This document shows positions 166 through 14,962 of a stretch of DNA of 14,962 nt, in pieces (the stretch's first letter is position 1; the number at the start of each line of letters is the position of its first letter). The position numbers and the translations under genes were made by a program. The stretch comes from a virus. Lineage: Duplodnaviria > Heunggongvirae > Uroviricota > Caudoviricetes. The stretch lies in IMG/VR virus record IMGVR_UViG_2529293000_000008. One strand, written 5' to 3'. The notes under the pieces were generated by a model that did no database searches, was not told where the DNA came from, and saw only the letters and a program-made list of their open reading frames with translations.

Positions 166-344
166 TTTAATTAAATAATTAACACCGCAAAAAGTGCCAA
201 AAATCGCAAAATGACTACACCAGTGACTACACCGTTCGGTGCACTGTATGAAACAACGTGGAACAAATAGACACAAGAAATATACAGGCGGATCATCTTT
301 CCAGGGGGAAGCACACCAATTCATGAGGGGCGTTAATGTCGATA

Positions 345-7625: not shown

Positions 7626-7754
7626 GGCGGGAAAATGGCCCCAGCGTCCTGGCACCACGGGCGAGAATAATCATGATTCAGGTCGGGTAAAATATGCCGT
7701 TCCGGTCAGCGAGCAACGTGGAACAACCACGAACAAATAATTTACAAAACATGA

Positions 7755-8731: not shown

Positions 8732-8780
8732 TTTTATTTTTACCCCCTCGTTTAAAAAGTTTTGAGTTGTGCCTCCCCTT

Positions 8781-9006
8781 GTCTACCTTATCTACCTTAC
8801 TGGCTCTCATGCCAGTAATGGCGCGGCTTTCAGCGGGGTAGAGTGCTTTTATCCACTATCTACCCCGTATCTACCTCCCTGTCTGATTCAGGTAAAATCA
8901 GGTAGAGAGGGTAGATAGTAGGTAGACAGTGAAAAAAGGCTGTCTACCTAAGTTAATATACTGAATTAAATGTATTTTTCTTTACTCAGGTAGACAGGGT
9001 AGACAG
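8781..9006. repeat. Iteron array and AT-rich tract; putative origin of replication
   Basis: At least 11 copies of the heptamer GGTAGA(C/T/G) or its complement in both orientations: 8781-8787, 8790-8796, 8837-8843, 8858-8864, 8869-8875, 8901-8907, 8910-8916, 8921-8927, 8942-8948, and tandem GGTAGACAG at 8989-8997 and 8998-9006; AT-rich stretch 8950-8985; immediately 3' of the primase-helicase gene. Confidence 0.65.
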
Positions 9007-11889: not shown

Positions 11890-12106
11890 GGTGCACCTCC
11901 TGCACATCAGCCATGATAATTTTTCCGGCCTTATCCAGTGCCTGATCGGCTTTTAGCTGCACAAATGCTAAATAATGGAAGATGCATTCTGATTCTCTGG
12001 CTGCGTGTTTATGCGCCCTGTCAGCAATAACAGAAATATCAATAAGCGCGTGCATCAGCGTAGTGAGCGCGGCGGCTGCTGCGTCCGGTGTGGTTTTATT
12101 GCACAT
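11882..12106 (-). CDS. Hypothetical protein (74 aa)
   Basis: ATG at 12106 with AGGGGG Shine-Dalgarno; overlaps the upstream ORF stop. Confidence 0.5.
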   Translation of the reverse strand: MCNKTTPDAAAAALTTLMHALIDISVIADRAHKHAARESECIFHYLAFVQLKADQALDKAGKIIMADVQEVHHA

Positions 12107-12302
12107 GGCCTACCCCCTGGCGAATACGGGCAGCGAATACCATCACGCAGCCATCAGGAGATTGCTGACGCGCTTCCTGTTCGCTGGTGGCCTCGATGGT
12201 AATCACGCGCGGTTGTGCCGTGCTCAGGGCGATAAAACGCCAGATGTATTTATTCAGGTCGTGCGAATCCCGCCCTTGCGGGTGTGTGGTATGATTTCTC
12301 AT
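12096..12302 (-). CDS. Hypothetical protein (68 aa), first gene of the small-ORF operon
   Basis: 3' portion of the long 12096..13124 track ORF; internal ATG at 12302 with GAGG Shine-Dalgarno; the upstream part of the track ORF crosses the promoter/operator region and is judged spurious. Confidence 0.45.
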   Translation of the reverse strand: MRNHTTHPQGRDSHDLNKYIWRFIALSTAQPRVITIEATSEQEARQQSPDGCVMVFAARIRQGVGHVQ

Positions 12303-12399
12303 AGCTACCTCGATACTTTCGCTATCGTTGGTGGTTAGAAGCCCCGTTACTGCTCCTACAGTGCGGGGTTTCGTCGTTTCTGTGCCTTTCATCAACAAG

Positions 12400-12480
12400 G
12401 TGTAAGACACAATGTAAAACAATGGTGTCTTACACGTCAACCCTTCAAAATATTTTTTTTTCGTGTATATTGTCTTACAC
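12400..12480. promoter_or_regulatory. Divergent promoter region with three operator-like GTGT-N3-ACAC sites
   Basis: GTGTAAGACAC at 12400-12410, its reverse complement GTGTCTTACAC at 12425-12435, and tTGTCTTACAC at 12470-12480; a T-run and TATATT lie between sites 2 and 3; sits between minus-strand and plus-strand operons. Confidence 0.55.
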
Positions 12481-12501
12481 CAAAAACATGAGGGGTTAAA
12501 C

Positions 12502-12681
12502 ATGGCAACGGGTCCAAAGAATGCAAAATCACAATCTGTAACTGCACGTATTGCCCATGAAATTATTGAAGGCATGGAGAACGTGAAAGAAGAAGGCGAA
12601 AGCACGGGACAGTTTATAAACGCAGCCATGCGCGGCGAAATCAAACGCCGCCAGCGCCGCAAGGCCAAAGAACCAGAGTAA
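12502..12681 (+). CDS. Small DNA-binding protein, likely ribbon-helix-helix (CopG/Arc/MetJ-like) regulator
   Basis: 59 aa; ATG at 12502 with GAGGGG Shine-Dalgarno 6 nt upstream; SVTARIAHEIIEGMENVKEEGESTGQFINAAMRGEI fits a beta-strand, helix, G-x-S/T turn, helix RHH layout; basic C-terminal tail; opposite strand to the rest of the island. Confidence 0.5.
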   Translation: MATGPKNAKSQSVTARIAHEIIEGMENVKEEGESTGQFINAAMRGEIKRRQRRKAKEPE

Positions 12682-12738
12682 TCACCATCAGCGCCGTGGT
12701 GTAAGGTATTACGGCGCATTGCTATGCAGGACAACACA

Positions 12739-12912
12739 ATGACCGATAAAGAATTGACCAAAACATTATCACCGGCACGGAAAAGACGGCGCAGAAAGAT
12801 AGAACATGAATCAGAAAGATTCGCGCCATGTGCTTTTGCCCTTGAGCAATTCCTTAAAGAGTACAGGGAAAAGCGCTCATTGCAGGTATGGCAACGAACT
12901 GAACCAGACTGA
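12739..12912 (+). CDS. Hypothetical small basic protein (57 aa), second gene of the plus-strand operon
   Basis: ATG at 12739 with weak AGGA Shine-Dalgarno; contains a KRRRRK stretch; followed by an intrinsic terminator. Confidence 0.35.
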   Translation: MTDKELTKTLSPARKRRRRKIEHESERFAPCAFALEQFLKEYREKRSLQVWQRTEPD

Positions 12913-13009
12913 TTGCATTGCCCACCAGCCTGATAGCGGCTATCATCCCCGTGCTTATGTTTGGGATCACACACACAAACGGCGCAGCGGGTTATCTGTT
13001 CAGAAAGGC

Positions 13010-13037
13010 GGCTCCATTTCGGGGCCGCTTTTTTTAT
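13010..13037 (+). terminator. Rho-independent terminator of the plus-strand regulatory operon
   Basis: gcggctcc-atttc-ggggccgc hairpin (8 bp stem with one G-U pair) followed by TTTTTTT. Confidence 0.6.
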
Positions 13038-13181
13038 GCCTGAAAAACCCCAATTTTGTGGTTTTCCAGTCTCACCAGGGCGAACGAATCCCCGCCCACG
13101 TTCTGGCGTATATTCAATCTTCATGGTTATAGCTCTGTGTTCAGATGATTGATGTGTGGCGGCTGTGTGCCGCCAGCGTGA

Positions 13182-13370
13182 TTAATGAACTGCCTTGCAG
13201 CTATCCTTCCAGGCCAGAACCTCGGATAAAGACCAGCCAACGGAACGACCGCCAAGTTTACGACGTGATGGGAATTGTCCGGCCTTTTCCAGGCGGTAGC
13301 GGCATGAGCGGCTAAGGCCTGTTAGCTTTTCGCATTCTTTTTCACGTATAAACCGATCAGTGCTTAACAC
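13182..13370 (-). CDS. alpA: AlpA-family transcriptional regulator / excisionase-like protein
   Basis: 62 aa; LTGLSRSCRYRLEKAGQFPSRRKLGGRSVGWSLSEVLAW matches the AlpA-family HTH pattern; GTG start at 13370 with AAGGGGG Shine-Dalgarno. Confidence 0.85.
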   Translation of the reverse strand: MLSTDRFIREKECEKLTGLSRSCRYRLEKAGQFPSRRKLGGRSVGWSLSEVLAWKDSCKAVH

Positions 13371-13652
13371 TATTGCCCCCTTTCGTTTCTTAAAGAGTTA
13401 TTTCGTGTTCTATTGCGTTGGGATGTGTCTGATTGTGTCAGGATGATTCAGAGTTGGCAAATGTTGAGGTCGTATGGTTTACAGAAACAGGAATAATCAG
13501 GATAAAATCATTTAAATTCATGTTAATACAAAGGCATAAAATATTGTTTCATGCCTTTTTTATCGCTATTTAAAGAGTGATTCGCTAGTGTATAAAAAAC
13601 CAGTAACACATTAAAAATCAGCTACTTATAAATCCGTACACTTTTTCGCCTC

Positions 13653-13727
13653 TTGTTCGTAGTTGTTCCGCATTGTTGCTCATTGTTGCATGTTGTATCT
13701 GTTCGCATATCCAGTATGCGCATACTG
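13653..13727. promoter_or_regulatory. Helically phased TTGTT repeats plus a 16 bp perfect palindrome between int and alpA
   Basis: TTGTT at about 13653, 13663, 13674, 13684 and 13692 (near 10 bp spacing), including tandem cattgttgc at 13671-13690; palindrome CAGTATGCGCATACTG at 13712-13727, 18 nt downstream of the int stop. Confidence 0.4.
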
Positions 13728-13744
13728 AAAAAACACGAAAAAAA

Positions 13745-14962
13745 TTATTTTCTTCTGGCTACTGGTAGCGTGGTTACGTTTTCATGTGTTCCCGCCAGTA
13801 TCCCTAACCGCTCCGTCCACATATCCAGCGCATTGCGTTTAGCATCCAGATAACGGGAATGATTATAAACTCGCTGCATTCCTGGCATCTGATGACCTGT
13901 AAGCTGCTCCACGACATGCGGATCAACGCCTAAATCGTTCAGCATGGTTGTAAAGGTGCGCCGGATGTCATGCAGTGACCAGTGAGGATGATTAAGCCTC
14001 CTGTGCGCTAATCTTCCATACTGCGATACGCTGGCCTCCTGTTTCGCTTCCCCCAGCAATAAGCCCGTGTGCCTGTTCTGCTCCACCAGCTGCGTGACGA
14101 ACGGCAGGATCGCTTCCGGTATGGGCCGGAATATTGCGACCTTCGTTTTGCTGTGCTCCTTCGGAACGGTCCATAGCATTTCCGTAAAATCCCACTCCCC
14201 GATCTCCGATAGCCTCAGTTCTACCGTCCTGGCTCCGAAGACAATCAGGAGGCGGATTAACGCGACGTAGTAAGGGGAAAATATTTTTTTGTCCAGTGCC
14301 TGCAATAATTCGCCAAGTTCTTTGTTACTTAAGACACGTTCGCTTATATCCGGTTTTTTCCCAACGTCCGCCACGTTCAGATCGTCCAGAACGTTGCTGA
14401 TTGCATAGCGCCGCCTACGGCAGAACTTAAGCGCCTGTTTGCACGCCTGTAGCACGAATCCGGCAGTAACAGGCGTTCGCTTTGCCACCTGGTCAAAACA
14501 GGCCAGCCAGTGCCGTAGCTCGCATTTATCCAGCGGCATAGCACCAATCTGCTGTATTACGTGATTATTAAGTCGCCTTTTCAGGGCGATATAATCCACG
14601 CGGTTTTCCTTTACGTAATACTCAAGCCAGTAGGTGAGCGCATCGCCAACCGTTACGGGCTTTAACGCTTCCTGTACGGTGTAATTCATCTCATGACGTG
14701 GATTTTTCCCCTCAGCCAGCCATGTGCGACACTGTGCGGCTTTTTCCCTGGCTGCTTTCAGGCTCAGATCAGGATAACTTCCCAGCTTAATGCGTTCGGG
14801 TCGTGTCTCCCTTCCCGTTCCGGCCCTGTATGTGAAATACCAGGTCAATTTCCCTGATGTTAAATATTTCACGCTCAGGTTTCCGCCATCACTATAAAAC
14901 GTGTTTTTCTCCGCTGGCTTACCATGAAGTTTCCTTAGCAAGGTATCGCTCAGTTTGTTCAT
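13745..14962 (-). CDS. int: Tyrosine recombinase / integrase (P4-like)
   Basis: 405 aa; N-terminal arm-binding-like region (LTSGKLTWYFTYRAG...LGSYPDLSLKAAREKA) and C-terminal catalytic region with HDIRRT and RVYNHSRY (His/Arg/Tyr signature); start codon lies at the window edge. Confidence 0.92.
   Translation of the reverse strand: MNKLSDTLLRKLHGKPAEKNTFYSDGGNLSVKYLTSGKLTWYFTYRAGTGRETRPERIKLGSYPDLSLKAAREKAAQCRTWLAEGKNPRHEMNYTVQEALKPVTVGDALTYWLEYYVKENRVDYIALKRRLNNHVIQQIGAMPLDKCELRHWLACFDQVAKRTPVTAGFVLQACKQALKFCRRRRYAISNVLDDLNVADVGKKPDISERVLSNKELGELLQALDKKIFSPYYVALIRLLIVFGARTVELRLSEIGEWDFTEMLWTVPKEHSKTKVAIFRPIPEAILPFVTQLVEQNRHTGLLLGEAKQEASVSQYGRLAHRRLNHPHWSLHDIRRTFTTMLNDLGVDPHVVEQLTGHQMPGMQRVYNHSRYLDAKRNALDMWTERLGILAGTHENVTTLPVARRK

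Follow-up and report, generated by a model that had tools for sequence, protein, structure and literature searches.

Phased TTGT boxes in a capsid-forming phage-inducible chromosomal island of Escherichia coli, candidate binding arrays for AlpA

The DNA analysed here, referred to below as the window, is the whole 14,962-nucleotide stretch of IMG/VR virus record IMGVR_UViG_2529293000_000008. It is an E. coli capsid-forming phage-inducible chromosomal island (PICI) of the EcCIEDL933 family, inserted in tqsA. The segment from 13150 to 13800 is 100% identical to the chromosome of E. coli MS20645 (locus L001), the open reading frames (ORFs) are collinear, and subtracting 2851 from an L001 position gives the position in the window. 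In L001 the island is about 15 kb long, interrupts tqsA and carries every gene on the minus strand. The gene order is int, alpA, an icd-like gene, primase, ssb and perC, followed by the genes for the major capsid protein, prohead protease, portal, connectors and HNH endonuclease and by terS and terL, a set that typifies capsid-forming PICIs, of which EcCIEDL933 is the prototype (10.1101/2022.09.08.507074). The int-alpA region of EDL933 is 92% identical to the copy in the window. Across complete E. coli genomes the region was found in 877 of 5426, and a scan of the genome contigs with Int gave a single locus.

Phased boxes in the int-alpA spacer

The two genes at the end of the island are separated by a spacer of 374 bp, counted from the int stop codon (13745-13747) to the alpA start (13370), and the original prediction placed a series of phased repeats between them. 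The annotated genes bear out this position:

14962-13745, minus strand: int, tyrosine integrase with an N-terminal arm-DNA-binding domain (PF13356, PF00589); the annotated start lies 12 nt outside the window end
13653-13699, plus strand: distal box array, five boxes at exact 10-bp spacing
13370-13182, minus strand: alpA, winged-helix protein of 62 residues (Pfam PF05930, E 5e-18)

The boxes of the distal array read TTGTTCG (13653), TTGTTCC (13663), TTGTTGC (13673 and 13683) and TTGTATC (13693). Five or more TTGTT motifs at about 10 bp had been predicted. The phasing turns out to be exact, while the count was slightly overstated: TTGTT itself occurs at 13653, 13663, 13673 and 13683 and TTGTA at 13693, which makes five in-phase TTGT cores, and a sixth unit, cTGTTCG at 13699-13705, is out of phase with them. 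Tandem Repeats Finder (TRF) calls a repeat of period 10 with 2.7 copies in the array and nothing more. To estimate how often such phasing arises by chance, we used 300 dinucleotide-preserving shuffles of the 15.2-kb island, read on both strands. The longest chain of any 4-mer at exactly 10 bp had two members in 221 shuffles, three in 78 and four in one; a chain of five was obtained for no 4-mer in any of the 300. Chains of at least three TTGT were likewise absent from all 300 shuffles, compared with three observed in the island. An ORF on the plus strand over the array (13653-13853, 66 residues, TTG start) was considered as well and found no support.

In order to assess conservation, the spacer was aligned across 12 E. 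coli loci and the IMG/VR contigs found with AlpA, together 59 unique sequences. The part of the spacer on the int side falls into two sequence classes. Class I, which includes the window, comprises 41 unique sequences with five in-phase boxes followed by a palindrome described below. The 18 unique sequences of class II (L010, L012, L015 and others) have six boxes at exactly 10 bp and no palindrome, the sixth box occupying its place. Upstream of about 13623 the class II spacer has diverged to the point that megablast similarity is lost; the six in-phase boxes remain. A chain of at least four TTGT at exactly 10 bp is present in 47 of the 59 homologues. Within class I the box cores are variable in 2 of 20 columns and the 3-nt spacers in 8 of 12, with a mean entropy of 0.02 and 0.52 bits, respectively. 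A logo built from 53 units of 12 arrays reads nnnTTGT[T/G][T/C]C; the TTGT core is found in 51-52 of the 53 units and the spacer positions are near-random (0.10-0.26 bits). Between homologues the arrays differ by whole 10-bp units, as in L043, where the distal array has one unit more. The cores are thus near-invariant across the 59 unique homologues, which is the opposite of the missing conservation in homologous islands that the original prediction had named as evidence against it. A pattern of kept cores and variable spacers is what selection on phased protein contacts would give.

The result of an IMG/VR scan for five TTGT at 10 bp was dominated by perfect tandem repeats with a 10-bp unit, from giant viruses and other phages; alpA or a close int accompanied the matches only in the known family. 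One further match, with a distant int (L220), is a near-perfect tandem repeat and uninformative.

Recurrence of the box at other places in the island

Five places in all carry phased arrays of TTGT[T/G][T/C]C: the distal site, both attachment (att) arms, the putative alpA promoter and the stretch upstream of the capsid operon. When the 32.6 kb of L001 were searched for TTGT in at least three of six 10-bp slots, matches came only from the distal array and from a single array close to either end of the island, and the 17 kb of flanking chromosome had none. Scanning with a position weight matrix (PWM) of the box brought up the other two, a degenerate array at the alpA promoter and the one before the capsid operon. 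The arrays and the features next to them are the following:

250-276, minus strand: left att-arm box array (TTGTGTC at 276, TTGTTCC at 266, TTGTTTC at 256)
212-235, minus strand: putative tandem Int arm-type sites, two copies of GGTGTAGTCA with a 12-bp period, beside the left-arm boxes
129-137, no strand assigned: att core ATAACAGCA (9 bp), also present at the right junction within tqsA (L001 18001-18009)
13413-13439, plus strand: proximal degenerate box array (TTGCGTT at 13413, ATGTGTC at 13423, TTGTGTC at 13433)
13432-13460, minus strand: putative sigma-70 promoter of alpA (-35 TTGCCA at 13460-13455, 17-bp spacer, -10 CACAAT at 13437-13432)
7710-7747, minus strand: capsid-operon box array (TTGTAAA at 7747, TTGTTCG at 7736, TTGTTCC at 7726, TTGCTCG at 7716)

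At the far end of the island (window 276-212, minus strand) the sequence reads TTGTgtctatTTGTtccacgTTGTttcatacagtgcaccgaac and then GGTGTAGTCACTGGTGTAGTCA. The int-proximal end, which lies outside the window (L001 17915-17849, minus strand), reads TTGTtccagcTTGTttcacgTTGTagccctTTGTgcaacgatc and then GGTGTAGTCACTGGTGTAGTCAC, with int about 25 bp further on. The left-arm array is also present in EDL933, and the int-proximal module was found in 12 of 12 E. coli loci, with the island in tqsA or next to roxA. Shared by the two junctions with the tqsA fragments, ATAACAGCA is likely the crossover core. As both arms share the module, each arm of the excised attP would carry three to four phased boxes and, after them, a tandem pair of 12-bp repeats. 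The first repeat of the pair lies 23 bp from the start of the last box in the left arm and 13 bp from it in the other, a difference of one helical turn.

The proximal array has the orientation of the distal one and overlaps the putative -10 and the leader of alpA; the -10 hexamer CACAAT is itself the reverse complement of a box. In L011 the array is clearer (TTGTGTC three times), and its length changes by whole 10-bp units, with one more in L011 and one fewer in the L003 class and in L009. Despite these 10-bp indels, all three sequence classes share the promoter outline TTGCCA-17-(A/C)ACAAT.

The capsid-operon array lies directly after the perC terminator (CAGCCGGAGCAATCCGGCTTTTT) and upstream of the capsid operon. 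Its PWM score is 23.2, compared with a null maximum of 19.3, and it is kept in 14 unique homologues; the box at 7716, TTGCTCG in the window, reads TTGTTC in most of them. As a side observation, the last box together with 16 nt and TATTTT resembles an activator-dependent promoter of the capsid genes, in which the box could serve as -35.

AlpA as candidate binder and the competing explanations

We propose, with a probability of roughly 0.6, that the boxes are binding arrays for a recombination directionality factor (RDF) and that this factor is AlpA. The proposal is built by analogy with characterised systems, of which the island has the outward features: short head-to-tail direct repeats about one helical turn apart, as in the distal array; arrays in the att arms next to arm-type sites, the distal array itself lying outside the arms; and a small winged-helix, RDF-like protein encoded by the element, as indicated by PF05930 and by structural matches. 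Relative to predicted promoters, boxes lie over that of alpA, 190-245 bp upstream of its putative start and upstream of the capsid operon. The AlphaFold model of AlpA (pLDDT 86.6) has its best fold match in the GIsul2 excisionase (8c3t, TM score 0.83-0.90, 38% identity), which was also the only match of a phmmer search of the PDB with AlpA. Further matches of the model are the RdfS excisionase, Pukovnik Xis, TorI and BldC; RdfS and BldC reportedly assemble into head-to-tail oligomers along DNA (RdfS: PMC11963761).

In related islands AlpA has been tied both to excision and to its own expression. In EcCICFT073 it activates its own promoter, and its overexpression leads to excision and replication (PMC6092414); induction of EcCIEDL933 requires alpA (10.1101/2022.09.08.507074), and in PICMI satellites AlpA has been proposed as the excisionase (PMC10803314). 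A mapping of AlpA binding sites in PICIs was not found in the published work, as far as it could be searched.

The closest anatomical parallel is TorI of the prophage KplE1 (CPS-53), where a 5-bp core, GTTCG or GATCG, is repeated three times (L088 455-479, K-12) with the exact 10-bp spacing that the boxes of the island have. TorI binds GTTCG/GATCG/GTCCG sites at attL/PintS and represses int (Panis et al. 2010, PMC2951348). In the K-12 sequence the three sites abut the -35 of PintS. They stand beside Int arm-type sites, a layout shared with the att arms of the island, and overlap a promoter, so that this RDF also regulates transcription. TorI is itself a small winged-helix RDF with a structure among the fold matches of AlpA. 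It differs from AlpA in falling below the PF05930 threshold (26% identity over 42 residues) and in its box sequence, and no array is known near its own gene, whereas the arrays of the island flank the alpA promoter and precede the late operon.

Several other small proteins serve both att sites and promoters, as proposed here by analogy for AlpA. Apl of phage 186 binds direct repeats spaced by one turn, both at att and at pR-pL (PMC7498355). RdfS of a Mesorhizobium integrative and conjugative element has two targets, its own promoter and, within attP, 40 bp adjoining an Int arm site (PMC11963761). Vis, described as the P4 homologue of AlpA, is required for excision (PMC6092414), and P2 Cox belongs to the same functional group. 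The likeness has its bounds: Apl and Cox are members of other sequence families, RdfS has no clear consensus motif while the box of the island is sharp, and the autoregulation reported for RdfS is negative whereas that of PICI AlpA is positive. The AlpA antiterminator of Pseudomonas aeruginosa shares the name and the winged-helix fold (PMC7969949). The promoter at which it acts has an intrinsic terminator downstream, and the island has a terminator-like hairpin (13530-13564) downstream of the distal array. Its site, however, is a single GGGACGN5GGTA between -35 and -10 without multi-box arrays in att arms (PMC7969949), and this element has no match in the window.

More distant modules suggest that the box tracks AlpA, an observation that is supportive but not decisive. 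In L084, where AlpA is 66% identical and its recognition helix is changed, GTTCG occurs three times at 10 bp beside two copies of GGTGTAGTCAT, upstream of int. In L248 (AlpA 70% identical, recognition helix altered) GTT(C/T)A occurs three times at 10 bp before two copies of GGTGCAGTCAG. Recognisable arrays were not found in L086, a high-GC locus with a distant AlpA. The CP4-57 element of E. coli K-12 (L131 640-740) has, upstream of intA, repeats of the GTCCCG/GTCCGA type 11 and 20 bp apart and then AGGCCCA twice; this layout of putative RDF boxes followed by arm-type sites is similar to that of the island, and the motifs differ.

A first alternative is that a protein of the helper phage binds the boxes, either a phage excisionase or a CII-like activator of 10-bp direct repeats, so that the arrays would be a sensor that switches on alpA. 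Helper phages do turn on alpA (10.1101/2022.09.08.507074; PMC6092414), excisionases are able to act across elements (PMC11773190), and a lambda-CII-type TTGCN6TTGC is present in the window at 13676-13689. This motif is, however, found in just 22 of the 59 homologues, while TTGT is near-invariant. Moreover, different helpers (lambda, phi80, HK106) induce related islands, and att-arm arrays in phase with Int arm sites, together with the array at the capsid operon, fit an element-encoded RDF better than a helper protein. We therefore regard a helper-encoded binder as unlikely.

The N-terminal domain of Int could also be what binds the boxes, which would make them arm-type sites and the distal array an additional Int platform. 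Int does have an arm-DNA-binding domain (PF13356) and the boxes are present in both att arms. A different tandem repeat, GGTGTAGTNNN, nevertheless tracks the integrase. The first 100 residues of Int exist as two alleles that are 78% identical, the remainder of the protein being 92-98% identical. The repeat, of the form GGTGTAGT followed by CAC or TAA, reads GGTGTAGTCAC in islands that have one allele and GGTGTAGTTAA in those that have the other, and this holds at both arms, including the far arm of EDL933 some 15 kb from int. The boxes and AlpA are constant across both alleles and hence do not track the specificity of the Int N-domain. The loci concerned are L001 17849-17915, window 212-276 and L014 3293-3360, and either allele is found in islands at tqsA or next to roxA. 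The repeat contains AGTCAC, as do the arm-type sites of lambda. Because the tandem repeat covaries with the Int allele and the boxes do not, the repeat is, on this comparison of sequences, the better candidate for the Int arm-type site, and the boxes need another binder. Furthermore, neither the distal array, about 1.45 kb from the core, nor the capsid-operon array, about 7.5 kb from it, is at an arm position. Binding of Int to the boxes is thus very unlikely. The original prediction had offered an excisionase, an AlpA-type regulator or an integrase arm domain as cooperative binders of the repeats; conserved cores, recurrence in the att arms, the fold of AlpA and the anatomy of the TorI sites argue for cooperative binding sites, with the integrase arm domain as the least likely of these binders.

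Direct repeats that contain TGTT at a spacing of 10-11 bp are also recognised by host response regulators, as in the tor boxes (CTGTTCATAT) and the ArcA repeats (TGTTA). Binding of a winged-helix regulator of the TorR, ArcA or PhoP type would tie the island to the physiology of its host, and both cTGTTCGCATAT (13699-13710) and the GTTCAT of L248 resemble tor boxes. No exact tor box is present in the window, though, the box motif changes between islands together with AlpA, and boxes in a fixed pairing with arm-type sites of Int, as in both arms, are the signature of an RDF, which makes a host regulator less probable still. Least probable of all is that the repeats act in RNA, as AACAA repeats in the 3' untranslated region of the int mRNA forming a platform for a protein or small RNA, or that they are a neutral product of slippage: they do lie in the int 3' region, form a short period-10 repeat by TRF and differ in copy number among homologues, but the box is found in either orientation with respect to transcription, and also in the att arms, which are untranscribed, the region has no meaningful Rfam match in or near the array at gathering or permissive thresholds and folds with a non-significant z of -1.3, and recent slippage is disfavoured because the contrast between cores and spacers runs opposite to that of a recent slippage repeat.

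Several points weigh against AlpA as the binder or against the regulatory part of the proposal. The assignment rests on analogy and on the exclusion of Int, and the covariation comes down to a small number of independent events, with two alleles of Int and two or three distant modules. The PWM score of the proximal array in the window, 16.2, lies within the null range, and the distal and proximal arrays are inverted relative to those in the att arms and at the capsid operon. AlpA was without effect on Pint in EcCICFT073 (Fillol-Salom et al., PMC6092414), although a box array lies upstream of int, and AlpA did not alter transcription in a PICMI satellite (PMC10803314). About 190-245 bp and the terminator-like hairpin separate the distal array from the putative alpA start downstream of it, an odd placement for a simple activator site. 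Finally, an array over the -10 and leader predicts repression, while the reported effect is positive autoregulation; the distal and proximal arrays possibly cooperate.

If AlpA is the binder, it would occupy the 7-bp boxes cooperatively and head to tail, one per helical turn, and have a double role as RDF (excisionase) and as regulator of transcription. In the att arms, an AlpA filament beside the Int arm-type sites and in fixed helical phase with them would bend the DNA into an excisive complex. The distal and proximal arrays would bracket the alpA control region and allow AlpA to regulate its own gene, and the capsid-operon array would tie AlpA to late gene expression. The identity of the binder is inferred, as are the sign and mechanism of regulation at each site. 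As the same box is found at the att arms and in the alpA region, the arrays would account for both the reported autoactivation by AlpA and its triggering of excision.

AlpA is the master switch of PICIs and capsid-forming PICIs, which are widespread satellites. A 7-bp box at the att arms, the alpA promoter and the capsid operon provides concrete, mutable targets, with which the coupling of excision, autoactivation and late expression by a single protein of 62 residues becomes testable, and it allows prediction of the AlpA regulon in other islands. The principle is already established by TorI, Apl, Cox and RdfS, so that the gain is mechanistic detail for one family.

The palindrome, the remaining spacer and other observations

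Read in the direction of transcription, the spacer begins with the int stop codon, a T-run, the palindrome, the distal array, a block at 13563-13623 and the hairpin (13558-13530). After the hairpin follow a conserved TTCTGTAAA, the putative promoter, the proximal boxes, a conserved CTCTTTAAGAAA, the ribosome-binding site and alpA. In addition to the arrays and the promoter, these features were delimited:

13712-13727, no strand assigned: perfect 16-bp palindrome CAGTATGCGCATACTG, with half-sites CAGTATGC and GCATACTG, class I only
13728-13744, no strand assigned: two A-tracts, AAAAAACACGAAAAAAA, whose starts are 10 bp apart; they separate the palindrome from the int stop codon
13530-13564, minus strand: conserved terminator-like hairpin and T-run, bordered by A- and T-runs; it separates the distal array from the alpA promoter

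The perfect palindrome had been predicted just past the int stop and is indeed there, 17 bp downstream of the TAA (13747-13745, minus strand). It is exact in 37 of the 59 unique homologues, differs by 1 nt in four and is absent from the 18 of class II; the variants are in the stem (CATGCTG) in EDL933 (L004) and L056 and in the central bases (ATGTGC) in L017 and L026. A 16-mer with up to three mismatches to this palindrome is expected 0.04 times per window, and no second copy with up to three mismatches was found in the window. Within class I, 2 of its 16 columns are variable, compared with 5 of 12 in the preceding 12 bp and 9 of 15 in the last int codons, while 3 of 17 columns vary in the A-tracts. 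Since the palindrome is as conserved within class I as the box cores and its flanks vary more, it is probably functional in this lineage; since it is absent from class II, it is a lineage-specific addition outside the family-wide design. It could be the operator of a dimeric protein or, equally, a stem-loop at the 3' end of the int mRNA, with a folding energy of -12.2 kcal/mol and a z of -2.3 as minus-strand RNA.

The view that the palindrome is not a simple terminator agrees with our data. A T-run precedes the hairpin on the minus strand and A-tracts follow it on the plus strand, so that no U-tract comes after it in either direction, and a terminator scan made no call. A common phage operator was rejected too, as the palindrome occurs in IMG/VR almost only in the same context 3' of int, apart from two unrelated chance hits (L115, L118). 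Likeness to a LexA box or to the att core was dismissed by eye, and an extended outer stem is, also by eye, not conserved between subclasses. In L248 (2380-2430) two copies of a different perfect palindrome, AGTGATATCACT, stand just upstream of alpA, a sign that the gene may be under another kind of control there, through an operator.

The hairpin at 13530-13564 folds with -13.7 kcal/mol (z -3.4) as minus-strand RNA compared with -9.3 kcal/mol on the plus strand, has a G.U pair on the minus strand where the plus strand has A.C, and shows a compensatory double change from A-T to G-C in L074. It probably ends the int transcripts. It may work in both directions, because the six-T run on its plus strand is unchanged in nearly every homologue shown. 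The plus strand at 13478-13508 further carries a conserved TTTACA, 18-19 nt and TAAAAT; to judge by the motifs, these elements could, together with the hairpin and its T-run, produce an antisense RNA of the spacer with a length of about 50 nt. A second promoter possibly lies immediately downstream of the distal array (TATAAG, 13630-13625, weakly conserved). The block at 13563-13623 is the best-conserved part of the spacer between the two classes, though variable within class I, and contains an imperfect palindrome, ATCGCTATTTAAAGAGTGAT. The motif TTAAAGAGTnAT is found twice, 180 bp apart, at 13563-13582 and at 13383-13402, the second copy just upstream of the alpA ribosome-binding site; another regulator, or the inducer that the helper supplies, could bind there.

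A more elaborate arrangement, which we consider unlikely, would make the spacer a self-contained switch in which two co-oriented arrays 240 bp apart bracket the terminator and the alpA promoter, with the palindrome of class I as operator for a helper-encoded inducer or a lineage-specific repressor. AlpA filaments on both arrays would then loop or condense the segment, or AlpA would let upstream transcripts read through the terminator, like its Pseudomonas namesake. Looping or read-through, if true, would lead to the sharp positive feedback seen on helper induction.

In the remainder of the window, the 342-residue ORF after alpA (12096-13124, minus strand) is not annotated as a single gene and covers the icd-like gene (about 12096-12302) and a truncated pseudogene (about 12609-13124), where EDL933 has an intact hypothetical protein of 247 residues. 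A small gene of the YlcI/YnfO family lies on the plus strand inside this region (12502-12681), convergent with alpA. At 12018-12033, CTGTCAGCAATAACAG matches the outline of a LexA box, CTGT-N8-ACAG; the match is probably due to chance, since about 0.2 are expected per 15 kb and alpA induction is reported to be SOS-independent. Just 3' of the primase gene (8777-9006), the tandem repeats CCTTATCTA (2.6 copies), GGTAGACAGTA (1.9 copies) and GGTAGACAG (two copies) are candidate iterons of a replication origin of the island.

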